DNA of 64,000 nucleotides from Anolis carolinensis (taxonomy: Eukaryota), in assembly GCF_035594765.1 (NCBI RefSeq), contig NC_085846.1, forward strand, positions 95,219,190-95,283,189. The letters are read 5' to 3'. The notes below the pieces were generated by a model. That model did no database searches and was not told the DNA's origin. It worked only from the letters and a program-made list of their open reading frames with translations. Shown piece after piece: positions 3,000-37,382 of the stretch (positions within the stretch are counted from its first letter, which is position 1; the number at the start of each line of letters is the position of its first letter). A program made the position numbers and the translations under genes.

Positions 3000-3134
<135 letters not shown>

Positions 3135-11554: not shown

Positions 11555-11555
<1 letters not shown>

Positions 11556-11605
<50 letters not shown>

Positions 11606-12062: not shown

Positions 12063-13726
12063 TAAGAATGCCTAGCAGCAAATTTTCAACATTAGCAGAA
12101 ATATTCACTACACTGTAATTCATTATACTGCTCAATGTGATATATTCTGTTCATATCTAGCTGAGCATAACAGTATAGTGAAATCATGAGTGTCTGTGCA
12201 ACCTCTATTCAAATGACACTGAAGAGTTATACGCAAAAAAGCCATCACTAATCTATTTCAGTGGACCATCAACACTATTCTAATTGCTTAATCACAGACT
12301 TGGGAAAGAAGAAACTCAGCCAATCTTAATTATCCAGCCACAGACTCCCAAACACAACCATGATATCTAGAGTATACAGCCATCAATCCTCATTAACGCA
12401 AAATACATGTGCTCCATTAGAAACCTCCAAACACAATCATTACTACCCCAAAAACAAAATGCTCAAAATATTGAGGAAATATGAGTTGTAATCCATAAAT
12501 TTAAGTTTTCTGAGTTCTAGTCAAACATAGGTTTTAGCCAGCTGTTCCCTTCAAAAACGAACAGGGCGAGACTTTCTACTTGATCAAACCACTTCTGCAT
12601 CTGACACACTATGGTTGATTTTGAATGGAAGTAATGCTTCTCAATGACAAACAGAACTGGTCTTCCCCATTCTTACTATCTCCCATAGAATACTAGCCAG
12701 TCAGTAATAACCTTATTGGATTAAACATGTTGGCAAAATTGAATATGTTCAAGACAGCACAACGACAGATGTCATTCCTCTCTCCATCCATTACCTTGTG
12801 CCAGAGGAATTCCGATGGCTACTGCACAATTACTTTAGAAGTCCTTTGCTTCCTTGGTTTGAGTATTGTTGCTGTTTAGACTTTTTAAGAGGCTTGTTTG
12901 TACACAAACCTGAGGTACTTTCCCCAAGTTTCCTAATGTTTCCTCCTGGTTTCTCTGTGGTCCCATTTTGTCTATAATCCTACAAATGCTCTTCCTCTGA
13001 AGAAATTATCATTGTGTGCCTCCAAATCAGGACTGCCAGTAACCACGATCTGAAGACAGACAGTTGTCCTCACTGGATGACCTTCTCACTAGATTGCTGC
13101 ATCATATTATAGTATATTATGCAGAGGTGATTCCATCATTCTCTACAGGTATGAAAATAGTGGGATAGAATGGAAATAAAAAAATACAATTTTTAGAAAA
13201 CTTGGTTTTTCTTCACCCAGCAAAATCTGGCTGGCAAATACACTTGCGCTATGAGCTTGTTAAAAACCCATTCATTTTGTTTTATTATCACTTACAGATT
13301 GTCATTATTTAACTAAAGTAGCAGTTTCATGCTTGCCCAGACCATATGGGTATTTTTGTTAATTGACACTATTGAGTGGTTTAAATCCATCCTTACTAAA
13401 ACAGGCAGATGAATGGACACATGAGAAATTACATTTGGCAGCAAGGATGATTACATGTGTGTGTTAAAATAAACAGCAATGGACAAGGCTTCCCAAATTC
13501 AGCAAACATTGCTTAACTAGCATTTCCTTAAAAAATTGATATTCCCATTCTTCAGCAACCCTTCCAAGGTCACATGTAGTTGTTTGTTTGTTTGTTTATT
13601 AGTTTAATATATACCCCACTGTTCTCCCATATGGAACACAAAGCAGCTTATATTGTAGGCTAAAACAATATAGCTGAAAGAACTGGAATACAAAATCTAA
13701 GAAAACATTAAACAACCCTCCACTTA

Positions 13727-14047
13727 AGTAAAGGTAAAGGTTTTCCCCTGACGTTAAGTCCAGTCGTGACCGACTCTGGGGGTTGGTGCTCATCTCCATT
13801 TCTAAGCCGAAGAGCCGGCGTTGTCCGTAGACACCTCCAAGGTCATGTGGCCGACATGACTGCATGGAGCGCCGTTACCTTCCCGCCAGAGCGGTACCTA
13901 TTGATCTACTCACATTTGCATGTTTTTGAACTGCTAGGTTGGCAGAAGCAGGAGCTTACAGCAGGTGCTCATTCCACTCCCAGGATTTGAACCTGGCACC
14001 TTTTGGTCTGCAAGTTCAGCAGTTCAGTGCTTTAACACACTGTGCCA
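13727..14047 (-). mobile_element. Sauria SINE, near full length, young
   Basis: Most of the head, full core and tail, with CpGs retained; CCACTTA on both flanks. Confidence 0.95.
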
Positions 14048-16975
14048 CCACTTACAAATACTGATTTAAAACAGTTAATGTATTGCATATTAAAACAAGA
14101 GACAGTGTGGTGTAGCGGTTTGATTGTTGGTGTATGACTGAACACTAGGGTTTGAATTCTTGTTAGGCCACAAAAACCCACTGGGCAACTATTGATCCTC
14201 TTCCATTGGAAGGGGAACCTGGAAAGCTTTGATTTGCATCCTTAAAACTTCTAGGAAAGTATTGGAAAAGCAAGCAGCTACTTATTTCTCAGCAGCTCTA
14301 AGCAAACTCCACTTCAGCTAAGCACTGGATGAAGCTGGTATTAACAATTATCTGGCTGCTAGTCAATAAAAAAATACCTGGCAAGCTTGTATTGCTTTTT
14401 CCTTGCAGAAAAATCTAATGTCATTCCAAACATCTCTAATTCATCCATCCCTTCAGTCTCTACTCTCTTCTGCCCCACCCCCACCTCCTCCTCAGTATTC
14501 TTTTCGGTGCTTTTCTTCCCAGGCATATCCTCTCTTTGCACATTCCTCCCCATTTCCCAATTATTCCATATTGAATTGTCCTGTGCCCCAACATTTTTTC
14601 AGGCTACACCAGCTCTCCTTTATTTCAGGACCTACCGATTTTGTGTTTCTGTAGGTAGTGCCCTCTTTCATCACCACTCTATTATAGCAACCCTGGAAAA
14701 GTCACATAATCCGACCTCTAGAAAATCCTGTCATACAGTTATCTTAGAGTTGTTGTTGTTGTTGTTGCCCCTGGAAGGCATGCAACAACAACAATAATAT
14801 TAAAGCTAGTATACTTGTTGAATTACCCCAAACAGTTAAAAGCTAGAGGTCTATTTAAACAAGAGAACAAAGAAGGAAGCAATCAAGCCTTTCTTGGAAG
14901 AGTATTACATAGCCTGGGATCAGCCACTGAGAAGACTGTGTCCTGAGTCCTCAACAGATATATCAGATGAAGCCTCCAGAAATTCCATTTAAATGAGGCA
15001 TTATGCCATTAAAGTTCTGCAAAACAAAACAAAACAAAGGGCTGGCTGGGGTATGGAATAGAGGGTCCTCAACATGAAAAGTCCTCCTCCCAGAACCTAA
15101 TCTTCTTTCTTCTTCATTCACTCAGTCGTTTCCAACTCTATGTGACCTCATGGAGCAGTCAATGACCTCATGGACCTAACCTTCATGTAGATGCAATTCC
15201 CTGCACATCTCACCAAGAAAAAAGCACTCATAGTAGCCACAATTCTACGAGTCACCCACTTTGATGTAAATAAGACATCTACCTGGAACCAAATTAGTAC
15301 AGGAGTCAGTGCTAGGCAACTATCTCTAAGCACATGCTTGACAGCAATAGCTTATTTGTTACATATGTCAGAGATCCTGCTGTAACAGCATCACAGATAC
15401 CTATATATAAAAATGCCTGCATGTAATAACCCTTGTGATTGCAGCATTTGACTTCAGGTGTAATCCTCTGAAGAACAAGCTAAAGAGAATTTTCATACAT
15501 CAAGGTGAAATGAGGGCAAATTCTTCTTCTTCAACTATTCAAGAAGACCAGATAAGGAACATTTAGCTACTTGCTTCTAGCTAGAAGGCAAATAAAGAAA
15601 GAAAAAATAGATGATGCTACAGCAATTGGGATTGAAAGATGGGTGCTAACTAAGAACAGTATGACTTCAGTATCTGTATCCACTACAGAAAAATATGACC
15701 TTTCTGGGCATTTTCTATGTCCTCTAGATCAATTCTATGGGTATTATTGGACAAGAAGTTCTTTGTTTCAATAGGATTTGCTATTTTTGCTGTTTAATAT
15801 ATCACACAAAGTTCACAAATGTATCACCTAGATATGGGGGATTGAGCTGCAAATATACAGACCTCCTGGAGACTCTTTACAAATTGCAGAAAATGCAACA
15901 AACTGCTTCTCTATTAATTGAGCTGGAGATTTGCACACTATTCTTTCCTCTTCCCATCGAAGTGGAAAACTTTTCATCCTCATCTCCCTCCTGGAAATGG
16001 TCCACAAGAACTGGAAATTTAGGGCAAGCTTCAGGATCTGGCAAACTTTGATGCAAAGTTTATTCTTGTATTTCTTAATAAATGCAAAATGTTTTTGAAA
16101 ATTATTTATACAAAAAACACTGAAGAAAGACATTCATGTTAAAATGGCCTTCCACCTTTCAAAGATGCTCTCTAGACAAAGCTGCTCCATATGAAAACAT
16201 ACTGTAGATCCACGTCTAAAAGTAAAATGTCCATGGCTTCCCCATTTTTCAGACAGAAGTCCTTTCTGGACGTGCATTCTCTCTTAGCCACAGTCGAAAG
16301 TACTACGGCCAAAGTCACAAGAAAAAATAAGATTGACCTGGGAATGCACTGGAAATGGTATTCCAAAGTGCAGCATTCCAAACCACCATTCACCACAAGA
16401 ACGTCAGCGCCTTGAAATTTTCAGCAAGCTCGTTGCAATGTAAGTAAACCTTCAGTCCTCTGGAATCTCCCTCCACATTGCTAAATTATTGATGGTTCTT
16501 TAAAAAGCTGCTCAGATGCACTATGTGCTATTTATAATGGGGAAAAGAGTAAACCAAAACAAGAATTCAGCACCTCTCTACTGTCATTCTGCTGTCAAGC
16601 ACAATGTATGTGAGTGCCACTTTTAGAACAAAGTTAGACAAAGTGAACTGGGAATTACAGAGATTTCCAAGCAAAGCAAATTACATTGAAAACTATCTCT
16701 GGTGATGCGCAAACCGATGTTTTAAACTTTAACAATGATCTTATGCATATCTACTTAGTTATGAAATTAAGTAGGACAAGCTCTCAGGTGTATAGGGATA
16801 GGTCTGAAAACTTAATTTTTTGGAATATGACTCTCACAGTCTTTTGAAGTTCAACTTTTGGACTACAACTTCAGCTGTCTATATAATGACTGCAGTAGTC
16901 AAAAATCTTAACATCTTCAAGTGTTGATCCATATCTATATCCTAATCTAATTACTTAATTAGATAACAACACAGA

Positions 16976-17246
16976 CAGGCATGTAGCCGGGGGGGGGGGG
17001 GGGGGGGCTTGAGGGGCTTAAGCCCCCCCCCCCCCGAAATTCTCAGGATGGTCCACGAGAAGGCCTAACATTTATTATTTAAACTGTTATGTTTATTCAT
17101 ATCATGATCTGATCACCATGCTCAATATATCCCATATGCATGGGGGGTATTGGGATAATGATACAAAAGGTTTGCTAGGGTAGATCCTCTCTCACTCAGA
17201 CTCAGCCCCCCCCCCCCCCCGAATCAAAATCCTGGCTATGGGCCTG
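16976..17246. mobile_element. hAT-type MITE with long G/C runs
   Basis: TIRs CAGGCATGTAGCCGGG / CCTGGCTATGGGCCTG; 8-bp TSD AACACAGA at 16968-16975 and 17247-17254. Confidence 0.88.
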
Positions 17247-17751
17247 AACACAGAGAAAGCCTCCTTCGGCATGACCAAGTGGAAATGATGGCTGAAGGTA
17301 TTTCTTTTTATAAGCCATAATTCATAAACCAATCCCAAACCCTGATTTGCAAATCTGGATTGTGAAAAATTAGAAATCAGAGAATGAGCTATGTGCACCA
17401 ACACGCAATTCGTTCCACAAAATCTTCCCATTCCATGTAAACACAGTCATTGATTAGTCCTTCCAGTCAAAAACATACATTATTATTTTTTCTTTGGATG
17501 AACCAGAAAAGAATGAACAAAAAAGCAAAGCCAATTACACTGATATTGTGCTCAAACAGCCCCAAAATCTATTTTCTTCTCTTATGTGACTTTAAATACA
17601 TGTGTGTGATAATATGTATAGGTTATGCACATGTGATTTTATGGAACAGTACCACAAGAAAAAGTGCAAGTGCCATAGCATAATAGAGCTTGCATGTTCC
17701 TTTATCTCTCCAAGTGAGGTAAAGAGACTAAAGACCCTTTCACACAATATA

Positions 17752-18717
17752 GGGCACTTCCAGACAGCATCAAATCACAGGTTTTCTATGAGGAGCAAAA
17801 AAAACCTGGGATGTGAGAGCAGGTCTGCACACAGACCTGTTAGTCCCTGGATTTCTGCCTGCGATGTTCAGACTTTCTGCTTCATTATGGGATTTTGAAG
17901 CCTACAAGGCTACAAGAAATTTTGGCGTTTAAAAAAAAAAAAAACCTTAAATGCACAGATGCAAATATGTGTATTGTTCATATGAGTTTTGTTCTTGGAT
18001 CATACATATCTGCCCCCCATTGTTTTTGTCCTGAAAATATGTTGAAAGTTGTCTAGAGAGAGAAAACTTTGTCTTAGCAAGAGAAACTTCATTTTCCACA
18101 CATTTAATGAAATTTGTGGAGTAGGACCACTATTTTCAAGGTCAGGACTACTCTATTAAACATGAACTGACACTTTCAAGCCAGGAACAAAACTCCATCA
18201 TTATTATTATCATTCAGCAGCTGCATGACCATCTGTCCAAACAGGTTTGGTCATGTACTTGTGCCTGGGAACAACAGGGTGATGTTCCTGGGTTATACCT
18301 GTCTGTTCCTCATTGCTTTTATCATAAAAACATGGGGGAAATGATTACATGGCAAAACCGTTGTTTGTGTGTCACAAACTTCATTAAACCTGTGGAAGAT
18401 TAAGTTTTTCTTGCCAGGATAAAGTTTTCGCCCTCTAGTCAACTGTTGCCATGATTTTAGGATACAACCAATCAGGAACTGACATGTATAACCCGGGAAC
18501 AAACCAACATAAAAAATCCCGTATTTTCTGAGTGTAGGGATATAAAGAGATTTGAATATCCACATTTTCCGGACAGAAACGGAATATTCTCGCGACTGAA
18601 AAACTCGTGTTTTTAGCGCTTTGTAGCGATTCTCCCATGTTTTCAGAGGACGTTGTTTGGCCAACCTCCATTTTGAACCAGGAGCTCCTGAAATAAAGGT
18701 ACTGTGTGGGTGCGCCC
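17752..18717. mobile_element. Candidate Harbinger-type non-autonomous element
   Basis: Imperfect TIRs GGGCACTTCCAGACAG / reverse complement GGGCGCACCCACACAG; ATA on both flanks. Confidence 0.45.
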
Positions 18718-20344
18718 ATAATGTCAATGCTATGATTCCACTTCAGCTATCATGGTCTCAGCCTATGGATTTGCAGGGAGGGATATTTAGAATTCTCAGC
18801 CATACAGTTCAAATGCCTCCTTGGGTCCCATACTGTGAGAAAGGCAGGGTATAATAAATTAAAGAAATAAAGGGGGAAATCCCTTCCCAGAATGTAAATG
18901 CCAGCATTCCACAGGATGCAGCCATGGCAGTTAAAATGGAATCCCTGTACTATAATTGCGTATTATAAAATGGCCCTAGAGCTAGGAGCACCCAACCCGT
19001 CAAGGTAAAAAAAAAATCAAAAGATAAGCAAAGAATCTTATCTTGAAGCTAGAGATACCCTAATTCCCTTCTTTGAAGGGTCAGAAAAGTGAATTCGAAC
19101 AAATCTGTCCTTTGCTGATTGATGGCACAATTGTTGCCTTCTCATTTTTATTGAAATAGAATAGTCTTCATTTCAATATAGAGATGAAGCGAGAACAGGT
19201 GGGGATGGGAGGAGAGAAATGGAGGAGTCATATCAACAGCAGATTGAATGTTGGCTTGCATGCACATACACAGACACACACACATCCTTGAGCTTGCCTT
19301 GTTGTCACAGAGACAGGCTATAAATATCAGCATAAATAAATGATACGCTCCGGGTGAAGGCACCAGGATGATTGGAATCGTGGGCAGGTCCTATGATGTA
19401 CTCTACCTAGATGTTACACTCACAAGGGCAAAATCAGCTGATCTGGGTGGGAAAGATCTTAAGATCAAGGCTATTCTTAGCCAGAGTAACTGCACCCTTC
19501 TATTTATACAGGCCCTGGCTTCCCCCCTAGGCAGGTCTTAAAAGAAAAGCTAGAAACGATTGTTCCCAAGAGCAGAATCCAAAATAGACTTGACTACACA
19601 TCTTATACGCCAAGAACAGTTGAAAAAAGGATATTCAAATCACCTATCTGCTAAAAATGCAAATCCAAAGGAGTCAGAAACACTGTGTTTCAACACATAA
19701 TGTTATAGTGAAAATGCAGATGTCTAGCCATATAACTGCAAAAATTCAGAAGTGTCTAATAATCCCAGGGATACAGATGAATGCATTACAGCATCTTGTC
19801 TTACTGTGGTAGAGGACCTTCTACCTATTTCTGTTACAACAATCAACAAATACAACTCATTGGTTTTCAGATGCAGACGTTGGAAAGTTAATTTTTAAAA
19901 CGAATTCATTATTTTTTTTAAATGATGGAGCTATATAAACAAATGATAATAAATAATAATGTGACTTGCTCGGAAGTCCCAAAGAATAAATTACTACTGT
20001 TAACCTTAGTGCATGTGTCTATCACATTACTTTTTATTATTCTTTTATATTTTACTTGCAAAAATAACCCTTAGGTTAGATAATAGAATGGCATAAAACT
20101 TTAAAATGTCTTTAAAACATCTAAAAATACTCTTAAAATGTCTAAAAATACAGTTACATTTTGCAAAAACATTACTCATCACACCAAAAAAGAGCCATCA
20201 TTTCCACACGTTCCCTTTGAAATGTAATTTCTCTATGTCCTTATTTCCAAAAAAGGGAACAAAATAATGAATTGCAGCTAGTAGGCTCTTAGGAATTGTG
20301 GGAGTTGAAGTCCAAAACACCTGGTGGGACCAAGTTTGCCCATG

Positions 20345-20560
20345 CCTGATCTATACTGTGTAGAATTAATGAAGTTTGATACCACTTTAACAGCACTCGC
20401 TCAATGCTATGGAATCCTGGGGTTTGCATTTTTGGTGAGGTACTAGCACTCTGACTAAACACCATGCAAAACTACAGCTCTCATAATTCCATAACATTGA
20501 GCCATAGCAGTTAAAAGTGGTGTCAAACTCCACTAATTCTACAGTGTAGAAGATGCACCC
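20345..20560. mobile_element. Old palindromic MITE (related fragments at ~6510-6655, ~18720-18975 and ~46540-46685)
   Basis: Inverted arms GTAGAATTAATGAAGTTTGATACCACTTTAAC / GTTAAAAGTGGTGTCAAACTCCACTAATTCTAC. Confidence 0.65.
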
Positions 20561-21010
20561 CAAGTTCTGTTCAAACTACAGTGCAATGCTACGTATTGCT
20601 GAAAAGAATAATGAGTAGAGTTAAATAAACAGCAGCAGTAGGCACAAAGAGCAAGAAAGAACCATTTTAGAAACGAAATAACAAAATGGAAGAATTACAG
20701 GAAGGACAGTGGCAGCCAAAAGGGGTTCTTTTGGTGACATATCGGTGCAGAAAGACCTGCTGCCAGTTTTAACAATCAATCCCGAATTAATCATGTGCAT
20801 TTTAAAAAGTGGCAACAGATAAGTATTGTAAATTATAGCCAAAGACGCCAGAGAACATAGCTGCACTTCTACCACTTAATGAAAATATTTATTTACTTAA
20901 AACATTTATAGTCCGCCCTTCTCACCCCGAAGGGAACTCAAGGCGGAGAACATATATACGGCAAATGCTCCATGCCGGGACATAAAATAATTATTATAAA
21001 TATACACATA

Positions 21011-21317
21011 CAGTGGAGTCTCACTTATCCAACGTTCTGGATTATCCAATGCATTTTTGTAGTCAATGTTTTCAATAATTGTGATATTTTGGTGCTAAAT
21101 TCGTAAATACAGTAATTACTACATAGCATTAATGTCTAATGAACTACTTTTTCTGTCCAATTTGTTGTATAACATGATGTTTTGGTGCTTAATTTGTAAA
21201 ATCATAACCTAATTTGATGTTTATTAGGCTTTTTCTTAATCTTGCCTTATTATCCAACATCTTCGCTTATCCAATGTTCTGCCGGCCCGTTTATGTTGGA
21301 TAAGTAAGACTCTACTG
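21011..21317. mobile_element. Tc1/mariner (Tigger/pogo-type) MITE
   Basis: TIR CAGTRGAGTCTCACTTATCCAAC at both ends; TA TSD. Confidence 0.9.
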
Positions 21318-21430
21318 TACATTAAAATTAGTTACATCTACTTTAAAATCAGCTATTTAAACCAACTCAGGACACCATAATACTTTCAGCTCTCCACATG
21401 CACTGAAATTAGCAGCATAGGACACCCATG

Positions 21431-21718
21431 TTTTTTTCATATCAGGAGCAACTTTAGAAACTGCAAGTCTCTTCTGGAGTGAGAGAATGGCCACCTGCAA
21501 GCACGTTGCTCAGGGGATGCCTGGATGTTTTTATGTTTTTACCATCCTTGTGGGAGGCTTCTCTCATGTCCCTGCATGGAGCTGGAGCTGATAAAGGGAG
21601 CTCATCCATGCTCTCCCTAGTGTGGATTCAAACCAGCAGCCTTCATGTCAGCAACCCAACCTTCAAATCATCAGTCCTGCCAGCACAAGGGTTTAACACA
21701 CTGCACCACGGGGGCTCC
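21431..21718 (-). mobile_element. A-tailed tRNA-head SINE
   Basis: Homologous to 8252-8535 and 60803-61068. Confidence 0.88.
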
Positions 21719-23507
21719 AGTAATGTGTTAAGTAGTGCTATATTTTATCGTGTTGTGTCCAAGAGCTGGCTAGACAAGCCAATGCCTTGGCTCTATTTCA
21801 GCGCCAGATTTGCAAGTCTGTTGTCTTTTTCTCATTAGATGGCAGACAATAAACATCTTATTTCCAGAAGTATTTCACCGTCTCCCCAAGAGGTCAAAAA
21901 GCACCTTGAAGATGTGTACATTTCTTATACCATAAGCTTCTTGTTGACCAGGCCCAGTGCTTACACCAGAATAAGCATCTCAGTCTTTAAGCCACCCTTA
22001 GACCCTTTGTTCTTTTTCCTGCAACGGAGTAGCCCAACTGCCCTCCTGGAATCTGGCCCTTGTCTACTAACTGCTAGCCTTTCTGTCTCATGCACTTAAA
22101 TCCACAACCAAAGCTTCGAGGCTGGTTGGGGCACAGCAAAAGGAAAAGCCAAGGAGCACAGCTTGAGTCACATAATAATCAATCATACTTTCTTGAGCCA
22201 AAAGCTTTTATGCCATCATCCAGACAGTTATATTAAATATTTATGCAGAGCAAAAGACAATAGCTCCTCTTTTTTGCTCTTTGTCAGTTTTTTTTTCTCC
22301 CCTGGAAACAAATTCTATCTGTGACGAATCATAGCACCTGAATGTCGTTTCTTTTACATTTGATGCCTTACAATTAATTTTCAATTTGTTTCACATTTCA
22401 TTTCATTCAATTTCTGCACCAGAAATATTTTTCCTACATTTCTCCCATTAGTCAGTTAGTGGAAGATAAAACAAAATGAAAATTAGAAATACAATGTTAT
22501 ATGTGACTGACGAGAAGTACGGTTGGAGTTACACGGAGATAAATGGGTATAGGTTTCAGTGTAATCTGTTTTCTTCTCTTCCCCCCCCCCCCTGCTTTTT
22601 CTCTCTTCTTTCTCATTTGAAACACATTTCCAAAAATGCCTTCTGCAACCTATTTTTAATATAGCAAATGCTTTGGGGATGGGATGAATTAATACCATTT
22701 TCTGCTATTGTTCCATCTTAATTTACTCCAGCAAAGAAAGAAGCAGAGCACAGTGTGGATATTTGACAGCATATTCTTCAAACACCTAGTTAAGTATCCA
22801 AAAAAAATGAAAATGTATTATACCCATACTGATTTATTAAAGTGCTGTTCTATTATGTTCACTTATTTATTACAGTGTTGAATGACTGTCTAGAGAAGCA
22901 ATCCAGAAATATTCATATCCAAGGGGAGTTGACTTCAAGAAGCTGCGAAGTGCTTCTTAAACATATTACCCAAGGCTGTTCTTCAGCAAAACATTGGTTA
23001 CCAGTCCACTGAAAATCCTCGGCTACCGAAATACTTCTCAATGAACAAAGATACTTCAAGGTAAGCCCAAACGCACAGTACAAGGTTTGACAAGAACAAT
23101 AGCAAAAGTTAAATTAAATCTGATCATTTTAATGTCAGTACAGCTTATAGTTGGTTTGTGCAAGTGAAAAAAGGTCTTCCTACCTCCTCTATGGGTAATG
23201 CATATTTAGTAGGTAAAGCACCTGTGGAAAATTCAAGGCTCGCGGGCCAAATGCATCTCACCATGTCATTTTAGGTGGCCCTTCAGATGCTTAGGAATCC
23301 ATTTTGTCATGATTCAATTTATTGGCCTCATCCAGTTCATTACAGCATTCAAATAATGAATCTACATGGTCTCATCTGGCTCTGTTGAAAGCCCAAACTA
23401 ATATCCACTGCACTAGTTTGGACTCTACAAATGAAAGCTCAGATACTTTGACACCAAGACCTTCTGTTTTGACAAAAATCAGATGCCAATCCTGGTTCTT
23501 TGATATA

Positions 23508-23815
23508 CAGTAGAGTCTCACTTATCCAACATAAACGGGCCGGCAGAACGTTGGATAAGCGAATATGTTGGATAATAAGGAGGGATTAAGGAAAAGCCTA
23601 TTAAACATCAAATTAGGTTATGATTTTACAAATAAAGCACCAAAACATCATGTTATGCATCAAATTTGATAGAAAAAGTAGTTCAATATGCAGTAATGCT
23701 ATGTAGTAATTACTGTCTTTACGAATTTAGCACCAAAATATCACGATGTATTGAAAACATTGACTACAAAATTGCGTTGGATAATCCAGAACGTTGGATA
23801 AGCGAGACTCTACTG
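23508..23815. mobile_element. Tc1/mariner MITE, same family as 21011-21317, opposite orientation
   Basis: Same TIRs and TA TSD; internal sequence is the reverse complement of the first copy. Confidence 0.92.
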
Positions 23816-26113
23816 TATTTTTAAAAATCAATATTTTCTCTCATGCTCACATTTTGCTAAATGGCTATGCTAGAATTGCATATTTGAAGAACAAATGGAA
23901 ATGTTTCAATTGAACAATGGTTAATCTCCTTGTCCTCTATGACTTTGGACTGGTAAAGTAGATTGAGTTTTATACTCTTATTTCAGTTCTCCCCAAACCA
24001 CAACACAATCCACATAGGCACTGATCAACTGTCTAGATTTGGCAAATCTCACATACAGCATTTTTCACAACAGATCTCTCCATGTGTGTTGACTGCTTAA
24101 TGGGGTTCTGTGTGATTAAAGAGCTTACACCAGTGCCCTATCAGCAAAGTAGTGTGGTATCTCCCCACCCACTGTCAATCATAAGCTGAGAGCACACATC
24201 TGAGAAGGGAAGGTCTAAGCATGTGGGCCTGTACGAAAAGCCTGATTAGAATTTAAGCCAACACACATACAACCGAATCCGGTGGAGCATAAAGCCAGCT
24301 CTACTAGCCATAACTATGTGTCACCCCCCTGTCCTCCTCTTTATAAATGACATCACCAAGGTTGTAGTCACCCAATGTGGTAACTCATGGTGTCACCTCC
24401 ATAGACCTTCTCCCATACCAGATCCCCACCTTAGTATTTTAAGTAGAGCATTAGAAAATTTGACAAAATCAGCAACTATTAAAGGCCAGCAACAACAAAA
24501 ACAACAACAGTATAAAAACAATTGTTCCGGTGTCTCCCGCTCTGATGGTGCCACTCATTGCGGTTCACACATCCTACACTGCCTTAATTATATCAATGCT
24601 CTTTATTACCTAGTGCTGGGTCATCTTCCTTGGGCATTTAGCAGCTAGGGAAGCACAAATGGTGCCCAGGTTGCTGCTGGATTTTTTCAGCAGCAAGTGA
24701 AATGACACTGACATAATCTTCAAAGGACCATGAGATGGATTCTTGTTTCTTCTTATTCCTGTTGAAACCCAGCCAGCCACTGCTTGGCTTCCCGTACCCT
24801 GTCCTGACTATCCCTGGCCACTAAATGGTTATGGGATGGCAACCTGACACCATATTAGTAAATAAAGATGGCCAATATTAACACCACAGGCTATGTGCAA
24901 CTCCAGCTTTGCATGATTTATTAATATTTTTATACATATAAAGATACAGATGGCTCCCATGGGGCAGACTGGGAGATATTACTAAATTCCTATCAACATT
25001 CACCACTGAATTTGTAGGCTGAAATATATCTAGAAAGCCACGCATTTCCCAACCTGAATGAATTTGCCTCTCCTAGAGTCATCCCTATCCATTTTAGTCC
25101 AAATGCTAACAAGCATACACACAAATGGTTATCGAGTATGGGGACAGCTGTCCAAAAATATAGGCATCTATGTGAAAAGATATAGAATGGCACATCTGGC
25201 AAGGTCTTTTAAGTTAAAATATAAAATATAAGGATGATCTTTCAAGTTTGGTTGCTCAAGCTATTTGGAGTCAGAAATCTTTACAAGAAACACAGAACAA
25301 ACATCCTCCTTTATCACACAGAGTGTTGCCTCAGATGTCAGTACTGCTTTCCCTTTTGGAGCAAAATAAAAGAGAGGGAACAGAATGGGGTCACTAGATA
25401 AATTTGGTTTCAGCTGTGTTTGGGCATTTATTTTCCAACACTAACAATACTATTACCCCCTAGCCAGTTTTACAAAAACTATATTCAGGCTCATTCAGCA
25501 ACAGTCAGGTTCATTCATTGTAAGGATTTGAGAGGGGGGGGGAATGTACCACCAACATCACCCACATGACTTGCTTCATTTTTGTAATACCAAAATAATT
25601 AGTTGGTTAGTTATCTGGATGCACCTGTGATAAGAATTTAATACAAGAATGCACAATTTTGCCAGAGTTAGAAATCAAATGCTGACCCATCACGGACCAC
25701 ACCAGAAATGGCAAAAACTATTTTAAAACAGAAAAAACCCTGAGGGAGCTCAACATCTACATCAAGTTCTGATTTTGCAAATGGCAGTTTGAAAGCTTGG
25801 GGTAATGACCTATTTATGAAAAATAAATACCACTCCTGGCAGTCTCCAGAACACTTAGAAAAGCTTTTCAAAATAATCTCATTAGAGTGGGCATCAAAGA
25901 GAGTGTCTGGTGGCAACACTCATGCCAGGATGTGGTGAATCCATTCCAGGTTTTGACTACTATTAAGAGAGCTCTCCGTGGTTCTGAACCTTTTTAGAGC
26001 TAATGTGTCACCCCTTGCAATGGGTTAATCTACTCCCTGACATGAGAACCACCATTTGAAGGGTTGCATCAGGCCACACCTCTGTTTTCTAACAGAAAGG
26101 TGTTTAACTAATA

Positions 26114-26246
26114 TGGTTGTTCTCAATTTGGGTCCCCAGATATTTTGGCCTTCAACTCCCAGAAATCCTAAGAGCTGGTAAAGTGACTGGGATTTCTGGG
26201 AGTTGTAGGCCAAAACACCAGGGGACCCACAGGTTGAGAACCACTG
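26114..26246. mobile_element. Palindromic hAT-type MITE
   Basis: Arms GGGTCCCCAGATATTTTGGCCTTCAACTCCCAGAAATCC / GGATTTCTGGGAGTTGTAGGCCAAAACACCAGGGGACCC; CTAATA on both flanks; half copy at ~49222-49288. Confidence 0.8.
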
Positions 26247-27504
26247 GTCTAATATATTAATGATATATTTTATTACTAAAATCATAAAATGAAACCAAAA
26301 ACAGTGCTTGTGGTCCTCCAAATGTTAATAATTTATAACCCTCAACATCACAGTCCACTAGCTATACTATACAAGGCTAGTAAGAACTGAGGTCCCATTT
26401 CCAGGCTGGATCTTATTGGAACATTGGTTAAACATCAATTGCTAAGCTGAACAATTCTGAAATAGCCTGAACATATACAAATCTTTGTGCTTAAGAATAT
26501 AGAGCCCATGAAGCACAATATGTATGGTTTCCGCTTACATAATGTAAGAAGTCACATACTGGCAGTTTCTAACATCTTGAACCAATCCTTTGTTCTTGAA
26601 GAATGCAAGGAAGATCAATTGGGAGTCACTGACTTGCAATTGCATTCATTGCTTTAAATTATTTTCATATGAGGTTTTTTAAAATCTTGCCTTTCAACAA
26701 TTCCAATTCCTCTTCTGTTAATTATTTCCACATTTTTAATCATTCGTTTCACCTGTTTTGTCTTTCTTTCCTAAGATAAATGGGGTTCAGCTGAACACAC
26801 TCAGGAAACATCCCTGCGTATATGTTTTCTTCCAGCACTGACTTTAATCTCTTCATATTTCATTGACCCTTTTGATCATTTCTGGATGGTAAGAAGTTGG
26901 AGCACCGTATTCAGATATGAAGGCATGCAGATTTCTTGCATACAAAGTGAGTGGATATTTGAAGTCATTCTGCTGCAAAAATGTCATCCATATGTGGAAA
27001 GGAATGTATGCCAAGCCTGCAATACAAAATTTGGGAAGGCGGACCATTTGGGAAACTTGTTGTGTATGCTATGATATGCTTCTTGCCGGATGTTAGACAG
27101 CATCTATGGCCCCTGTGCATAATTCTGATCTACATTTATTTTTAAACTCACATTTCCTTGAACTGTTTGAGAACTCTAGATTTGTTATCCAAAGCTTTTA
27201 CAGCCTTTTAATAACAAGAGCTTCTTTTTTCCTTCTCCATAAGACAAGAGTTAAAACATATTTTCAAGAAATCAACGGTTTCTAGAGAGAAACCTAGCTT
27301 TCATGAGTGTAGATTTATGTTCATTCATTTTTCTTCCACCCAAAGGCTTCCCAGCATATTATGAAGCAACAAACTTAGAACTGCCAAATAATGTTCACCT
27401 AACAAGAAGTCTCTGCTAATTCCATCTCCCTGACAAATTAACCTGCATGACACACACATTTGAAAACCACTGATACGTCACAAGATTACATCTACATTGT
27501 AAGC

Positions 27505-27724
27505 ATTTGTGCCTTCAAGTCCCCTGTCAATGTATTACAACCCCATGAATTTCATAGGGTTTTCTCTGGCAAATACTCAGAGATGGTTTATCATTGCATC
27601 CCCCCCACCCTGCAAAAAAAAATCTGTCCTTCAGCACCTGGCATTCCTTGGGAGTCCTGCATCTGAGTACTAACTGGGACTGATCCTGCTTAGTTTCCAA
27701 GACCAGATGGGATGTGGTGCCCTC
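27505..27724 (-). mobile_element. 5S rRNA-derived SINE (SINE3, 5S-Sauria-like)
   Basis: Minus strand ATCCCATCTGGTCTTGGAAACTAAGCAGGATCAGTCCCAGTTAGTACTCAGATG...GGAATGCCAGGTGCTG aligns to 5S rRNA; followed by a tail ending GACTTGAAGGCAC. Confidence 0.78.
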
Positions 27725-28147
27725 ATACCAAGAATGACCAGATTTAAAGCATATATTCTAAATATTCTTTGTTCTTTTGAGGACCATGACTTACTCTTTG
27801 TTGTTGTTGACTTATGACAATTCTGTTAATGAGATACCTCCAAGAGATCTTGTTATTAAACAGCCCCATTCAGGTCTTGCAAATTTGGGGCAGTGGTTTC
27901 CTTCATTGAGTCAATCCATCTGTAGTCTTCCTTTTTCCCTACTGCCTGCAATATGTTTTCTCTAAGAATTCACTTCCATCTTGTTCAATGAGTCATGCCT
28001 TCTCGTGATATGCTAGAAACCATAAAAAGGAATGGAGAACGTGTAACTCTCCAGATGTTGCTCAGATACAATTCTTTCATCTTCTTTCATCATTTGCAAT
28101 GCTAGCTGATTCATGTAACTGTGGATCAGCCACATGGGGCTGATCTA

Positions 28148-28829
28148 GGACCTTATCACATTGGGATATAATCAGTTTATGTATCCCAATTTTTTTAGGA
28201 CTGGATGCATACTGCATTGAGACGCAGGCATGTAGCCGGGGGGGGGGGGGGGTTGAGGGGCTTCAGCCCCCCCTCCCCGAAATTCTCAGGGAGAAGACCT
28301 TACATTTATTATTTAAACTGTTATGTATAACAATACAAAAGGTTTGCTAAAGCAAATCCTCTCTCACTCAGACTCAGCCCCCCCCCCCCCCCGGAACCAA
28401 AATCCCAGCCCCTCCCGAACCAAAATCCTGGTTACTGTCCTGTGACATCACACCTGATTATTACAATTCTTATGATTTGAAAATACTGTGCTTTGACTCA
28501 TCACACCACAGAAGGCTGGCTCTTCCCAATCCATTCAAAACACTCCCTATATCACTCTATGACCTTTTAAAAAGTATAATTACTAATGGGATGCATACAG
28601 ATTTTCCTATTACACACAGAAAGAGCGCTTCAGCAATGGAAGAATCTGTAGTATTTTTTTAAAAAACACGATTAGAATTCCATCTACAAATAATCAATTT
28701 CTGCAAAGTTGGCAGACGGATTCTAACAGAACACTGACGGGTTAAGGGCAAACATCATGTGATGGGACCCATTCCAAATCATTCTCAAATAGTCTCAGAA
28801 ACTGAGTATTTCCTCATGTGATAGGGTCC
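28148..28829. mobile_element. Harbinger-type non-autonomous element hosting a nested hAT MITE
   Basis: TIRs GGACCTTATCACAT / ATGTGATAGGGTCC; CTA on both flanks. Confidence 0.65.
28225..28442. mobile_element. G-run hAT MITE, second copy (internally deleted)
   Basis: Homologous to 16976-17246. Confidence 0.85.
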
Positions 28830-29367
28830 CTATAGTAATGCGGGGCAAGAACACCTTAAAATATTCTTGCCCCATGTTACCAAGAGTTGTGGAATGCTCC
28901 CAATTCTTACCCAGAATTTGGGGTATCCATCAACTTTGAACCAGTGAAGAAAGTTGGGTTGGTTCCCAACTGCCATCCTGTGTTTTGCTGGTTTGGATGA
29001 CCCAGGGACACATGATAGCAGTCCCTTATCCCCCTCACACTCATGTCACGGCAGTCTTTAACACGGCACCTATCTTTTCCTTGGGTCTTGGTCTGATGTC
29101 GGCCAGAGTGATGGGGAATGATGAGAAGTAAGGAGGAGAGGAAGGGGATTTCTTTCTGTCCCTCTTCCCTCAGCATCCGTTGCTCTGGTTGAAGTCAGGG
29201 CAAGCAATAGGGGAAAAGATAGGTGCCACTCAAAGACATTTAGAGTCACCCTTTCAGTGGCACTGGACCGTGTTCAATACTGTTGGGCAGTCTCCATGGT
29301 GGCTGGGAGACTTTTCTCAGAATCAATCTGACACCCAATTTAAGTGTCAGTATAGATGTGCCCTAGG

Positions 29368-29525
29368 ATATATATGAAACATAAATGCATTTTTGTGTTT
29401 ACACTTGGATCCTGTCTCAAAGGTACCTTATTATGTACATGAATATACTCCAAAGTACAAAAAATTCCAAAATACAGAAGACTTCTGGACCTAAATAATT
29501 TGAATAAAGGATAATCATCAACCTG
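29368..29525 (+). mobile_element. Tigger4/MER46-like terminal fragment
   Basis: TATATGAAACATAAATGCATTTTTGTGTTTACACTTGGATCC...TCAACCTG resembles the recalled Tigger4 end. Confidence 0.6.
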
Positions 29526-31242
29526 TGCAACACTAGAATGAAACCCAAATAGATGAACCAATGATGCACTAAATGGAGAATTTAGCAACTTGTATGTAGA
29601 GGGGAATATAAAGCATGCCTAGAATCATGGAGCTGGAAAAAGTTGCAAGATCCATCTAAGCCAGTTCCCTGTCTTGCAGGAATATATAGCTAAAGCACTC
29701 CATCCAACCTCTGTTTAAAGACCTTCAAAGAAGGATTTATTGCCTGCCAGGGAAGTATATTCCACTTCCAAACCTCCAAGAAGTTTTTTTGTAACATTTA
29801 GGTGAATTCTTGTAATTTGAATCCACTAGTTCGTGTTCTAGTTTCTGGAAAGAAAGAAGCTCACTTCAGTCACTTGCAAAAACCCCTTACTAGTGACATT
29901 TAAGTTTGCTGATGGAAGCTGCATCCCAAAACTGTTGGAGGGTTACATTTTTCCCCACTTTGGTTTTACAGCATTAGAAAAATAACATCAATACTTCTGT
30001 AGAATCAGAAATTCAATCAGAAGCCAGACCATTTCATCATTCTGCATTTACTGGAATATTAGTTCTGGCTCAAGAACAAGCTCAAGGCTTACTGGAAGTC
30101 CACCTTACAATAAAAATGAAACAATTAAGTCAGCATTTAAGATAAAGCCCAGATCTATTGAAACATTGAAGATTCATCTTGTATTCCAATGGAGTTGAAT
30201 ATTAAACCGGGCAAAACAATAACATGATCCGAAAAGGCAACAAAAATCTTTCAAGTAAACAACTGATGTTGAGTTGTGGGGTATTTACAATTCCATTACA
30301 TAAGGAAAACAAGAAACTATATCCAGATGTTATGATATTACTTGCTTAGATTTGTTTTAAAGTATGTTGCAATTCATAGTTTGTACTAATAATTTGGGGC
30401 GAGAGAGAGAGAAAAAACAAATTGCTTTTCAACCACAGAAAATTTATCATAGTGACAAAAAACGCACACACACAGTGTCAATATTATTCTTATATGCAGT
30501 AGCTATGGAATCTGGATAATGTAGCAATACATCTTTTTACTAAATTTAAAGATCATTTAAACTTAAATTTTGAAAAACTGTAAACCTGTGGGCAGGTTTT
30601 GTTCTTTTTAGCTTAGTAATTATGATACCAAACCTGGCTTTAGAGACAATTGAAAATAAAGATATACAAGGAGAAAAGGGCATTTGCCAGTAGCAAAAAT
30701 GAAAACTGCATTTTCCTTCATTGAAGCAGAAAACTGTACAGTTGCCAGCCTAAAAACTTCAGAGGCATAAACACTTTTCAAAGCACTTTTGTCACAAAAC
30801 TGGCCACTCTAGTGAAAACCTACTGCTACCTCTTAGATTTCTTTTGAATACACAAAATCGGATTACTTCTTGTGATCAGATTGCTACGGAGCCGATTTTA
30901 TACAAGAAAATGATTTTGAAATAAAGCTATAAGTCACCCAAAACCAGCTTAGCCAAAACTATAATGTGCTTTCACAACTATTCTTGTATAAGTAAGGAAA
31001 TTCAAAAGAGATATCCCTTTTGGACAAAGTTAATCTTTGCAGTAAAGCTGTCGAAAAAAATAAATATGAGAGGAGGGGAAAAAATGAGAAAAACAGTTCA
31101 ACAAGTACTGACAAATTAATCTGGTGGCATGGGGGAATATAATTTTAAAGAGACAAGGAAACTTGCATGTTGTTCCCTATAATAAATTTAAAGGGAGAAT
31201 ATACCAAAATGCATTATATCAAGAAAAAATAGGATTAATTTA

Positions 31243-31440
31243 TGTTGTTGTTGTTGATTTGTTCAGTCGCTTCCGACTCTTTGTGACCTCATGGACCATC
31301 CCACGCCAGAGCTCCTTGCCACCTCCAGCCCTTGCCACCCTCAGTTCCTTCAAGGTCAAGCCAGTCCTTGCCATCCATCCATCTTGCCCTTGGCCGACCC
31401 CTCTTCCTTTTTCCTTCCATCTGCCCCAGCATCATTCTCT
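31243..31440 (-). mobile_element. RTE-clade LINE 3' end
   Basis: Reverse complement ends GAGGTCACAAAGAGTCGGAAGCGACTGAAC..(CAA)n; related fragment at ~15105-15175. Confidence 0.7.
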
Positions 31441-31899
31441 AGGATTTATTTATATATTTTTTAAAAGCTGAAACATTTAAAAGCTTGAACTTATTGGAAA
31501 CTGCCAATCTGCAAGAATAAATGCCAAAGAAATCTAAATTACACTAATCAATGAAGACTTACACAGGTTGTTCAAGGTTTCTGAACTGTACAATGACTTT
31601 CTCCTAGTCATACCCTAGAATCCGAATGGTTGCCCCCCAAAATGTTGGTGAAGGTTTTGGAGGAATACAATGAATTGCTGAGAGAAGTAAAATCTGTTGC
31701 ACAAACTTTTTTCATAGCACCAGATATTATCCACAGAACTATCATGTATAACAGGAAGTCAGGTTCTGGTAGGGCAAAGCAGACACACCAGAGGCAAAAA
31801 ATAGACAATTAGGAAATACAAAGTTGAGGAAGCAGAAGGACAAGTCATATAACCATTCGTGAAAACTGAAGGCAAATGAGATTGTTGACCAGTAGGCTG

Positions 31900-32170
31900 A
31901 AGTACAGAAGTCCTTCCAGTGCTGCCTAAACTTGACAGCCCGATGGCTAAATACTGTCCATCTGGTATCTAAGTCCATGCATGAAGTGGTGGATTCATCT
32001 CTGCTTCTGTTTGACTTATCTTCATCACATGACAGAATGAATTATCTCCTTAGCATCCAACTGGCTCAAATGGGGCCTTGCCATCCAGAGAGTCTACATT
32101 ATCTGCTCTTGCTTATTCAAGAGCAGACAATGGCCCTCTGGACGACATTGGGAAGAGGCTGACTTCTGGA
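31900..32170 (+). mobile_element. Old L2 RT fragment
   Basis: Degenerate YCPSGI (YRPVS-like) and SLLLFDLSSSHD (LLDLSAAFD-like) motifs. Confidence 0.5.
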
Positions 32171-32538
32171 GCTCTATGACATTCCTAGCCTGCCTCCTCT
32201 ATGTTGGATTCCTCTGGCAAGCGAGGTGTCCCAGTAGCATCCCAAGGTCATCCTTGCTGCCCTCCATTCCACCAGAAGCCCAAGACTATCTTTTTATAGC
32301 CAAACAAGGCTAAATGACTCCTCCTGCAAGCCTCCAGGAGGGGTGATTCACCTTTTAAATAATTTGAAGAGCAGCTAAACATTTACTAAAACATGTTTTT
32401 CAAAATCAGAAATTGACTTCTAACCAGTTCTGCCTTTTGGTCTATTCCAAAAGGGAGCACTAGACACAGAAGGATAGTCCATTTTACATGGGGGACCGGG
32501 GGGGGGGGGGGGGTTGAAAGAATAAAACTGTTTCTCTC

Positions 32539-33119
32539 TGTGTTGTCGAAGGCTTTCATGGCCGGGATCACAGGGTTGTTGTATGTTTTCCGGGCTGTCT
32601 GGCCATGTTCTAGAAGTATTCTCTCCTGACGTTTCGCCCACATCTATGGCAGGCATCCTCAGAGGTTGTGAGGTATGGAGAAACTAAGCAAGGAAGGTTT
32701 ATATATATCTGTGGAAAGTCCAGGGTGAGAGAAGAACTCTTTGTCAGTTGGAGGCCAGTGTGAATGTTGTAGTTAATCACCTTGATTAGCATTGAATAGC
32801 TGGCTTCTCCTGCCTAAGGGCATCCTTTGTTCAGAGTCGTTAACTGCCCTTGGTTCCCATGTCTGGAATTCCTCTGTTTTCAGAGTGTTGCTTCTTATTT
32901 ACTGTTCTGGTTTTTGAGTTTTTTAATACTGGTAGCCAGATTTTGTTCATTTTCATGGTTTCCTCCTTTCTGTTGAAGTTGTCCAACAATTGTCCACTCC
33001 AACAACTATCATGTCAGACTACACAGAGAAGCCATTAAAATTCACAAGCATGTGGACAACTTCAACAGAAAGGAGCAAACCATGAAAATGAACAAAATCT
33101 GGCTACCAGTATTTAAAAA
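32539..33119 (-). mobile_element. Penelope-like element 3' portion with an inverted 5' segment
   Basis: Minus arm ~32539-32990 with complete tail; plus arm ~32995-33119 is complementary to ~32920-32985. Confidence 0.88.
32621..32670 (-). ncRNA. Penelope-type minimal hammerhead ribozyme motif (intact, sense to ADAM22 pre-mRNA)
   Basis: Minus strand CACAACCT-CTGAGGA-T-GCCTGC[catagat]GTGGGC-GAAAC-GTC-AGGAGAG; all core nucleotides present. Confidence 0.78.
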
Positions 33120-35329
33120 ACCACTATTTTGTTTCGGTTATCAAAGAAATTTGTGCTAGAACTGAAATTCACACCAATGACTAGTTTCAGATTCAGCCTT
33201 CATTCATGACCATTCATTTTTGTATGCTGCATATACAAAAATGGAAATGTGTCCAAACGAAGTTATCTTCCTGATTGGAGAAGAAATGCTCTAGTTTGTC
33301 TTCATTTTATATGTCTCTGTATTTCAGGGTAACTTTCAAATAAGTTTTTAATTTACAGTCTTAGTGGCACTTCAACCTAAATGTTGCAGATTATATGCTA
33401 AAGAAAGTTAATTCATAGTTTAGCAGCTTGTCTATTAATTTAAAAAGAATAAGGGAGGAGGGCAATTTGGTTATCTGGCTATATCTTCCAGATATTTTTA
33501 TTTCTTATAATTTTATAGCCCAAGGGGGCAATGTTTGGAAGGTTCTTCTTCAGCATCGCCATGTGGTTGTCTCATTTGCTTTGGATGCTTTTGCTGCATA
33601 TTTCAAACCAGGCCATCTTATTCTGGATTCCAGATGCAATGGATATTCACTAAAGCTGCATCCTAATTAAAACTTCTCTCACACATCTGTTTCCTTGCAA
33701 AATGGAAGTGCCTCAACCTCAAAAGAACATCAGCACGTTGACCAACAGCTCCAAATCACATACTAATCCACAGGCATGGGTTGTCTCAGCTGTTCCACAC
33801 ATGTAAAATTGCATTTGTGGCCAGATATCTGGTTTTTGCTCAGCTTTATGTATGCTTTATATTAAAGGCAGAAAATGCACATTGTTCAAAGGAGAGGCTA
33901 AGTCTTCCCATCGCAGGCGGGAGATATCATTTCTATGCTCCTTCGCCAAACAGTTATGACAGATTCCCACCTACAGAAACTTTATAGACTTTTTCATCCT
34001 TTTAGGTTGAAGCCAGATGCAATTTAAAGCCGTAGGATGGTATTTTCAAAAAGTAATTTGTTGCCCACAGATTTTTCAAAGTAAAACATTACTTAATTCA
34101 TTTTACTTGTTTTTTAATAAATTAAATAGACAAAAAAGTATATGTTTCTCCCAAACGACCCCCATCAACATTTTTGAACTAATGAGTAAAATGCTAACAC
34201 ATCCCACTAAAACGAAACAGCTGGGTTATCCAGTTTTGGGCTATAGTTGTTTTTTAATAAACCACCTCTTTGATTCCATTACCTCCAAAGCATTATGTTG
34301 CCTCTATTACTTGTAACACATTTATCCCACTCAGATTTGAAAGAAAAAATCCACAATGCTGGGAGCATATGTCAGCTCCCTTTTAGCAGGCCAGATGACT
34401 GAACAATGCTACATAATTCCCTTCATCATCTCTCTGTCTGCTCACTTGCTCGATGAAACAACAGCTCTGAGGCTTCTCTGAATTAGAATGAAAGGACGCT
34501 TCTCTAGGAATCTCTTGGCCGCGTTTGTCAAATACAAGGCCCACGGGCTGAATCCGGCCCTCCATGTCATTTTTGTGGCCCTCCAGATAGAATCATAGAA
34601 ACACAGAGTCGGAAGAGACCTCATTGGCCATTCAGTCCAACCTGCTACCAAGAAGCAGATGCTGGACTACAACTCCTGTATTCTTATTCATTAAACATCA
34701 TGACTAGAGCTGATGGGAGTTGGGATACAGTAACATCTGGAAGGCTGCAGTTTGTTCTGTTCAGTCAGGAGAATGGGATTTGAATTTAAATACAAGGCTT
34801 GTGGATATGATGTCTGACTTTCAAATGTCCTTCCACGTTTCTCCAACCTCAGAGCTACAAGTGCTGATAGGTTGCAATTTTATGATCCCCAGGCATATAA
34901 TCGTAAGTTATGGGAGTTGTTGTTCAGTAACAAACATCCAAGGACCTAAATTGGGTTAAACGAAGGACCACTGACTACTATTATAGTTGGCTCTCTATTC
35001 ACAGATTCTTCATCCATGGATTCAGTGAGCCTTTGAAGACAATTAAAAGGCTGATGTGGCACTTGATAAAAGGAGTTTGACACTCCTGCTCTAGGTCCTT
35101 CAGTGCAACTCTACAGTCAGCTTCTTCCAGAGGTTGACTATACAATGACACCGAATGACCTAAAAATGTCTAGAAATGTTCTGTATTGAATTACTAGGTC
35201 CTGCAGCTCCAGCCTAATACAATATATATTCATTTTTCATCTAAGTAGACCTATGCATTTGAGAGCCAATGTGGGATACTGCTTTGAGCACTCTGGAGAG
35301 CAAGATTAGAGTCCCCACTTGGCCACGGA

Positions 35330-35749
35330 GGCCCCTTCTACACTGCCATATAAAACCCAGATTATCTGCTTTGAAGTGAATTTTACAGCAGTGTAGACTC
35401 ATATGGAGCCCCCAATGGCACAGCGGGTTAAACTACTGAGCTACTGAACTTCCTAGCAGTTTGAAAACATGCAAATGTGAGTAGATCACTAGGTACCGCT
35501 TCAGCAGGAAGGTAACTGCACTTCATGCAGTCATGCCAGCCACATGACCTAGGAGGCAACTATGGACAATGCCGGCTCTTTGCTTAGAAATGGAGATGAG
35601 CACCAACCCCCCAGAGTCGGACATGACTAGACTTAATGTCACGGGGAAACCTTTACCTTTACCTTTAGACTCATATAACCCAGTTCATAGTATATAATGT
35701 GGATTATCTGATTTGATGATCTGGATTATATGACAGTGTATATCCAGCC
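35330..35749. mobile_element. Harbinger-type MITE split by a Sauria SINE
   Basis: GGCCCCTTCTACACTGCCATATA ... TATATGACAGTGTATATCCAGCC; related to 11914-12062. Confidence 0.78.
35405..35666 (+). mobile_element. Sauria SINE with internal deletion
   Basis: Head to (ACCTTT)n tail; TSD AGACTCATAT at 35395-35404 and 35667-35676. Confidence 0.92.
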
Positions 35750-35955
35750 TTAGTGATCTTGGTCTAGTCACACTTTCCTAAACTCAGTGAAAGGCAACTG
35801 CACTCTGACAAATCTTGCTGAGTAAAACCCTGTGAAAGGGTCACACTAGCATCGCCATAATTTGCAATTAACTTGAAGGCAAAGAGCTACGCATACAGAG
35901 AACTCTTCTCTGTCTCTCTCACTTTATTACAAACACAAAGTGTAGAAAGAGGCGT

Positions 35956-35987
<32 letters not shown>

Positions 35988-36607
35988 CAAAGCGCTTGCT
36001 TTGGAGTTGTGCAGCCAAAGTGGACCCACATCAATGGCCAAGGCAAGAAATAGCCAATATTCTTTCTGCTGCAAACAGCAGGGAAAGAGAGCATTGTTTA
36101 ACACCAAAGTGCAGATTTCAATAAATCCATACAATTTTCTGAATTAGAAAGAAAGAAATGGGAAAAGCTCCCTCCTAAGATCCATACAAGGGGTTACCAT
36201 TATAGTAGGCAGCAAAAGGAAGTATGGATGGGTTGACAGTGTGTACAAGACCATGGATTCCAGAATAAGAAGGATCCTGTACTTTTGAGAAGTTACAAAA
36301 AAAAGGCAGACTATCTAGGGAACAGCCACTGATGTATCTGTTAGAGTAGCTTTTCCTAAACTGGTATGCCTACACATATACATACACTTATACACAGTGT
36401 AAAGTACTGTACATGAATTCAACAGATTCAATTGACTTATGCAAGTTATTCTAATGGAGACTAACAATTGGATGTATGCCAAGTATGTTATGTCAACTTG
36501 CATCAAGATCTGAATCAAGAAGCAATACTGGAAAATACTAAAACTATCACATACAATACTGAAGGAGAAATTTTTTTAAACAGTCAAATGAATATATAAA
36601 TACTCAC

Positions 36608-36684
36608 TGGTTTAATTCTACATCCAAGATGAAAGATGATCCAAAAGCATCAACCTGGAAGCTGGCCCGGGCGATATGTGTGGA
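36608..36684 (-). CDS. ADAM22: ADAM22 internal coding exon (prodomain; equivalent to human exon 3)
   Basis: Minus strand reads ttgcag|TCC ACA CAT ATC GCC CGG GCC AGC TTC CAG GTT GAT GCT TTT GGA TCA TCT TTC ATC TTG GAT GTA GAA TTA AAC CA|gtgagt = [25 protein letters not shown](H). Recalled human sequence is [26 protein letters not shown]. 77 nt; the split codon CA+T (His) joins in frame to the 3015-3081 exon. Confidence 0.95.
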
Positions 36685-37139: not shown

Positions 37140-37382
37140 GACTCTGAAGCTGAAAGGCTATTCAATGCTAATCAAGGTGGCCAATTGAAACATTTACACC
37201 TGCCACAAACAGACAAGAGTTCTTTCTCCCACTCTGAACATTCAACAGATATATAAACCCAAATTACTTAGTTTCCAACAGACCACACGACCTCTGAGGA
37301 TCCCTGCCATAGATGCAGGCGAAATGTCAGGAAAGAATGCTTCTGGAACATTGTCATACAGCCCAAAAAACTCATAGCAACC
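37140..37382 (+). mobile_element. Penelope pLTR fragment
   Basis: Homologous to ~10425-10627; hammerhead motif at ~37290-37332 with GAAATGTC. Confidence 0.85.

Follow-up and report, generated by a model that had tools for sequence, protein, structure and literature searches.

The minimal hammerhead ribozymes (min-HHRs) of metazoan Penelope-like elements were defined by Cervera and de la Pena (2014; PMC4209133). In the passages of that paper that bear on their structure, min-HHRs lack a helix III loop, are palindromic at positions 15.2–16.2, carry one extra nucleotide, placed after position 9 and before 10.1, as a conserved feature, and combine a G10.1–C11.1 pair and an enlarged helix II with a short helix I. 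They mostly occur as solitary copies left by truncated elements. A single min-HHR from schistosomes is reported there as inactive and its dimers as weak; lizards are not named in the same passages.

A hammerhead is also described from Anolis carolinensis itself, in the Poseidon_Ac element or PAc (Frangieh et al., 2024; PMC11167929). According to the sections of that paper concerned with the ribozyme, the start codon of the element opens stem II, the cut falls 26 nt after the start codon, and reverse transcription (RT) starts at 111–118. Cleavage did not occur without PAc protein, and C3G and G8C abolish it. Insertion in vitro needs the first 172 nt of the ORF, where the authors suppose a protein-binding motif to lie. 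PAc is expressed in anole RNA-seq data, none of whose reads are said to end at the cut site (a statement resting on their Fig. S2B), and uncut RNA is viewed as the main template. Our literature search returned nothing beyond that paper on a Penelope hammerhead in Anolis.

Ribozymes that have been domesticated within introns form the third comparison. The CPEB3 ribozyme and the amniote intronic hammerheads, which we take to be HH9/RECK and HH10, are single-copy, conserved and active as monomers. With them (the mammalian HDV-like ribozyme of CPEB3, in part of PMC10919898, and the hammerheads, in part of PMC6765202) the motif described here shares the sense strand and an intron of a neural gene; it differs from them in belonging to a set of 14,707 young repeat copies and in having a helix III that cannot be closed alone. 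We put the probability at roughly 0.87 that this motif belongs to a young, truncated copy of PAc, that its hammerhead is the one already known and published, and that the copy is an inert passenger in an intron of ADAM22.

The hammerhead and the element copy that carries it

The window, that is, the whole 64,000-nt stretch of DNA that was analysed, contains the hammerhead motif at minus-strand positions 32670–32621. The sequence confirms the parts and coordinates listed by the initial annotation, with the predicted cut between 32628 and 32627 and helix III reduced to ACGU (Table 1). As in min-HHRs, the core nucleotides C3-U4-G5-A6-N7-G8-A9, G12-A13-A14-A15.1 and U16.1-H17 are all present, a single nucleotide separates 9 from 10.1, and helix II, made of four Watson-Crick and two G-U pairs, keeps G10.1–C11.1. 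The palindrome is formed by A15.1-C15.2-G16.2-U16.1 and leaves a loop III of zero nt, so that helix III is unable to close within one molecule. Helix I is the point of difference from min-HHRs, being only 3 bp without an internal-loop extension; the CUC/GAG extension proposed earlier is formally possible, but only across a 4x1 internal loop. Having neither a closable helix III nor an Rfam match (no hammerhead among 41 matches at E≤5), the motif falls outside the canonical monomeric type I hammerheads.

Table 1. Features of the hammerhead, the PAc copy, related copies and the host gene, in window coordinates
Feature	Position	Strand	Basis or remark
Minimal type I hammerhead, Poseidon/PAc: helix I 3 bp, 6-bp helix II, ACGU palindrome	32621..32670	-	sequence
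Helix I 5' arm CCU	32665-32663	-	
Core CUGAGGA	32662-32656	-	
Extra U	32655	-	
Helix II GCCUGC / GUGGGC	32654-32649 / 32641-32636	-	
GAAAC	32635-32631	-	
GUC triplet	32630-32628	-	
Helix I 3' arm AGG	32627-32625	-	
Start codon of element ORF (A9, 'extra' U, G10.1); cut 26 nt downstream	32654..32656	-	sequence; geometry per part of PMC11167929
First 118 nt of PAc ORF; homology ends at +118, distal RT start of PAc family	32539..32656	-	5/118 differences from printed template, by eye
pLTR/untranslated part of element, bounds approximate	32657..32862	-	alignments to other copies
3' tail of element ORF	32863..32985	-	translation matches end of RT-bearing ORFs in L151 and L152
Inverted ORF 3'-end piece; folds back on 32858-32985 as long hairpin	32994..33119	+	-136 kcal/mol for 32851-33125
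Sense copy nearest to motif within same intron, 24.6 kb downstream; decay of palindrome and of helix II closing pairs	7924..8050	-	
Sense copy in upstream intron, 29 kb away; both CpGs decayed	61788..61939	-	
Antisense copy on far side of 77-nt exon, 4.6 kb upstream; potential dsRNA partner of motif copy	37264..37382	+	
Antisense copy in same intron	8544..8690	+	
Antisense copy in same intron; element extends to 10147	10508..10662	+	
Antisense copy, inverted partner of 61788-61939	62606..62732	+	
ADAM22 77-nt prodomain exon; donor GT at 36607	36608..36684	-	P0010 mapping
Host intron, 33,526 nt	3082..36607	-	exon mapping
Next ADAM22 exon, residues about 99-121	3015..3081	-	P0010 mapping

All 50 nucleotides of the motif are identical, by eye, to the PAc template printed in the Methods of Frangieh et al. 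(2024). From +1 to +118, 113 of 118 nt agree (again by eye) and homology then stops, at the RT start (+111–118) of that paper, whose positions for the start codon, at the beginning of stem II, and for the cut also fit the copy; a second end used within the family lies at +84. Judged by its nucleotides, the motif is thus the hammerhead already published for Poseidon (PAc), a Penelope-like retroelement. This identity and the min-HHR features bear out the earlier assignment to the minimal type I hammerheads of Penelope-like elements. By its place in the reading frame, the 'extra' U belongs to the element's start codon, AUG; it had been read as a tolerated insertion, and is instead both a family rule (in the passages of PMC4209133) and part of a start codon. 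As a truncated genomic copy and not the consensus, it departs from published PAc by five substitutions in +40 to +70, by a pLTR longer by about 20 nt (by eye) and by the lack of any ORF past +118.

The element copy is 580 bp long, truncated and partly inverted (32539–33119). Read in the sense of the motif, it opens with the inverted piece from the ORF end and continues with the 41 final ORF codons, the pLTR, the hammerhead and the first 118 nt of the ORF; a motif at the pLTR of a Penelope-like element is a further feature of min-HHRs. The same arrangement is seen in longer relatives. Both long ORFs of L151 and L152 contain a reverse transcriptase (PF00078; E 8e-14 and 1.5e-13) and end in nearly the same peptide as the present copy, and in L151 the exact 35-nt core lies 145 nt past an RT-bearing open frame of 585 aa. 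From its motif, the peptide at 32863..32985 (-) is presumably an endonuclease C-terminus. Pfam GIY-YIG matched none of the four element proteins, and we use that label on the strength of such motifs and of PMC11167929.

Truncation at the RT start is common among the sampled PAc copies, 14/70 of which end at +84 and 17/70 at +118, giving a two-site tail. We suggest that reverse transcription began at +118 of an element RNA and would have run back across hammerhead and pLTR and then through the terminal part of the upstream ORF, leaving the short inversion. At 32539, 227–286 contigs per run diverge into unlike AT-rich sequence. No target-site duplication is evident by eye around the copy, and no empty-site joint occurs among the joints listed (15 of 244 and 15 of 24), the right-flank contigs in 6/8 runs entering the element by only 8–27 letters, below a 31-letter threshold. 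A run of 16 G lies on the plus strand at 32498–32513, 26 nt past the +118 end of the element.

Host intron and capacity for cleavage

The host gene takes its name from a reprolysin exon that lies 37 kb to the left of the window and agrees at 100% over 55 aa with the ADAM22 of Anolis species; a PDB search with the 25-aa exon gave 0 matches. By protein mapping, the 77-nt exon at 36684–36608 matches the ADAM22 protein P0010 at 100%. The motif is in sense orientation within a 33.5-kb intron and its predicted cut is 3,980 nt from the donor, confirming the location first assigned to it (sense strand of the ADAM22 intron, about 4 kb past the donor). Elsewhere in the window, 49850–50430 is an AT-rich degenerate tandem array, and 54523–54646 and 26138–26220 are near-perfect hairpins of a dispersed repeat, which we take to be MITE-like, that match miRNA models below gathering scores. 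An open frame of 232 aa (58872–59567, +) presumably corresponds to the C-terminus of a CR1-type LINE ORF2, which it resembles.

The initial annotation went further and suggested co-transcriptional cleavage of the ADAM22 intron, a claim that we find unsupported. In print, the identical motif cleaves as part of a longer RNA and with PAc protein only, being inactive without it, and the same paper reports no RNA-seq ends at the cut (PMC11167929). From the literature, minimal hammerheads need a second copy, with helix III built through the ACGU palindrome, and the PAc hammerhead needed PAc protein in vitro. Four sense copies span the motif in the mapped ADAM22 unit and only the motif itself (32621..32670) is intact; no intact sense partner was found for it in that unit, nor are sense copies depleted from introns (below).

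Predicted folds likewise argue against activity of the single copy. With nearest-neighbour energies, which omit tertiary contacts, chaperones and proteins, helix II pairs in all five sequence contexts with probabilities of 0.78–1.0, helix I has a probability that rounds to 0.00, and the open hammerhead fold reaches only 1e-5 to 1e-8. A double hammerhead is predicted at -17.7 vs -28.8 kcal/mol for two monomers, the dimer thus being 11 kcal/mol uphill, and duplexes with the four antisense copies of the same pre-mRNA at -166 to -231 kcal/mol. The copy stops at +118 and is therefore without ORF nt 119–172, an absence that we infer would block protein-assisted cleavage. A pre-mRNA copy that has no near intact partner, lacks these nucleotides, misfolds on its own and can instead pair with antisense copies would consequently be spliced out uncut. 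Most likely, then, the motif alone in the ADAM22 intron does not cut. No paper in our literature search joins ADAM22 with a ribozyme, and this particular copy seems so far undescribed in the literature searched; nothing sets it apart from thousands of siblings.

Cutting at a low rate with help, from PAc protein, a host chaperone or a dimer whose second partner is another PAc RNA acting in trans or the decayed sense copy at a distance of 24.6 kb, is an unlikely alternative whose effect on ADAM22 would be small and unselected. It can draw on a core identical to the motif that cleaves with PAc protein, on the expression of PAc in anole RNA-seq (both in part of PMC11167929), on thousands of identical copies that could act as partners, and on the mild excess of genomic copies that start at the cut (see the last section). 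Against it stand the end of the copy at +118, when insertion needed the first 172 ORF nt and the supposed protein-binding region within them, the lack of RNA ends in what that paper reports, the dimer energy, and the fall of the excess once non-independent loci are removed. It is more doubtful still that the thousands of intact sense copies in anole introns, ADAM22 included, are latent cut sites because PAc protein switches the PAc hammerhead on, with host pre-mRNAs severed in trans by that protein or by PAc RNA. If they were, a transposon-gated, genome-wide ribozyme network would exist wherever the PAc element is expressed, and if PAc protein activates truncated intronic copies, a transposon protein would control the cleavage of host pre-mRNAs at thousands of sites. 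As found, the locus carries little weight, since the motif sequence, the start-codon overlap and the protein dependence are already published.

Any influence of the copy on ADAM22 may instead come from its being one arm of a double-stranded RNA with antisense copies, which could favour editing or exon skipping over cleavage. Window positions 32574–32800 and 37157–37382 are 79% identical over 229 nt and flank the 77-nt exon, which their predicted duplex of 113 bp (-166 kcal/mol) could loop out, but inverted PAc pairs are common (15/49 loci have both orientations) and we hold this role to be very improbable.

Copy number, age and strand of PAc insertions

Genome-wide, 14,707 sites fit a 35-place core pattern exactly (7,413 forward and 7,294 reverse), and the reversed-pattern control has 0 genome matches, so the motif sequence does not reflect chance. 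The number of matches does make its placement in an intron expected by chance: with 0.51 cores per 64 kb, about 40% of 64-kb windows hold one, a gene of 130 kb holds one or more sense copies with a probability of 0.40, and about 40% of genes of similar length would show such a placement. The window itself has seven copies spanning the motif.

The age of the copy accounts for its intact core. The core is intact in 15/32 copies with less than 3% non-CpG divergence vs 2/36 older ones (68 of the 70 sampled copies having enough scorable sites), and the ADAM22-intron copy differs at 1/43 non-CpG sites (2.3%). Across copies the two CpGs are the most decayed core positions, and the core is intact here because its two CpGs have yet to decay. 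The suggestion that intactness may simply reflect youth is therefore well founded.

These results also bear on a possible domestication of the copy, by which it would act as an intronic ribozyme like that of CPEB3 and tune the neuronal splicing of ADAM22. The sense strand, the distance of 4 kb from the donor, the intact core and the Cpeb3 precedent (in part of PMC10919898) would suit such a role. We nonetheless regard it as scarcely credible: the best relatives, among 40 of 2,910 candidates scored, are dispersed copies with 93–96% identity over 447 nt, the copy is no more intact than its age class and is not single-copy as domesticated ribozymes are, helix III has no compensating change, and placement is as expected by chance.

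We scanned 1,514,000 bases within ADAM22 and three long CUB-exon genes, which are likely CSMD1-3, assuming single-gene spans and dropping matches that fail to span the motif (in the smaller run, 16 of each orientation). Full copies are sense in 37/70 cases (p 0.72, CI 0.41–0.65) and intact copies in 12/18 (p 0.24), and the 49 loci divide into 18 with sense copies only, 16 with antisense only and 15 with both. Sense copies are thus not depleted in these 1.5 Mb of four genes, a weak test, since a cut intron may be harmless, and one with a wide interval. Tandem retrozymes, a different element class, are depleted from Xenopus introns according to the part of a preprint that concerns them (10.64898/2026.07.22.740005).

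One locus in a long CUB-exon gene, L118:8388-8774 (G000:C12, about 23,208,388–23,208,774), has two intact sense hammerheads about 140 nt apart together with an intact antisense arm, and is the only such tandem among the 49 loci. It is a better candidate than the ADAM22-intron copy for intron cleavage by a cis-dimer. With its unique flanks and its place in a neural gene, the ADAM22-intron copy could serve as a test case; the intact pair of L118 is a better one.

PAc copies that start at the cut

Copies starting at the cut (+30) would be a sign that the family ribozyme cuts in vivo. Six of 104 matches in 1.644 Mb begin there; they come from two loci, a single junction being common to the four in L153. 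Genome-wide, raw starts number 214 at +30, 103 at +33 and 213 at +24. After classing of 30, 20 and 20 loci (22/30 of the examined +30 loci being truncated at +30), the estimates become about 157, 88 and 117 copies, respectively, and without four non-independent loci the figure for +30 falls to about 128, near those of the controls. There is accordingly no sharp peak and at most a mild excess of starts at the cut, in agreement with the view of uncut RNA as the main template (PMC11167929, in part), and the ribozyme of the PAc family may cut now and then in element RNA.

Some loci are rearranged around this position. L153:2272-2963 contains head-to-tail PAc units of about 220 nt, each starting at +30 and running past +235, with an inverted arm; all units share one junction. 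At L128:2203-2364 and in L196, L213 and L219/L220, fold-back palindromes have arms that meet at the cut site or a few bases from it. A perfect fold-back prefix precedes 11 of the 100 first-listed +30 matches (2 of the 11 inspected) vs 2/100 at each control, and such palindromes may have arisen when RT reached the end of a cleaved RNA and turned.
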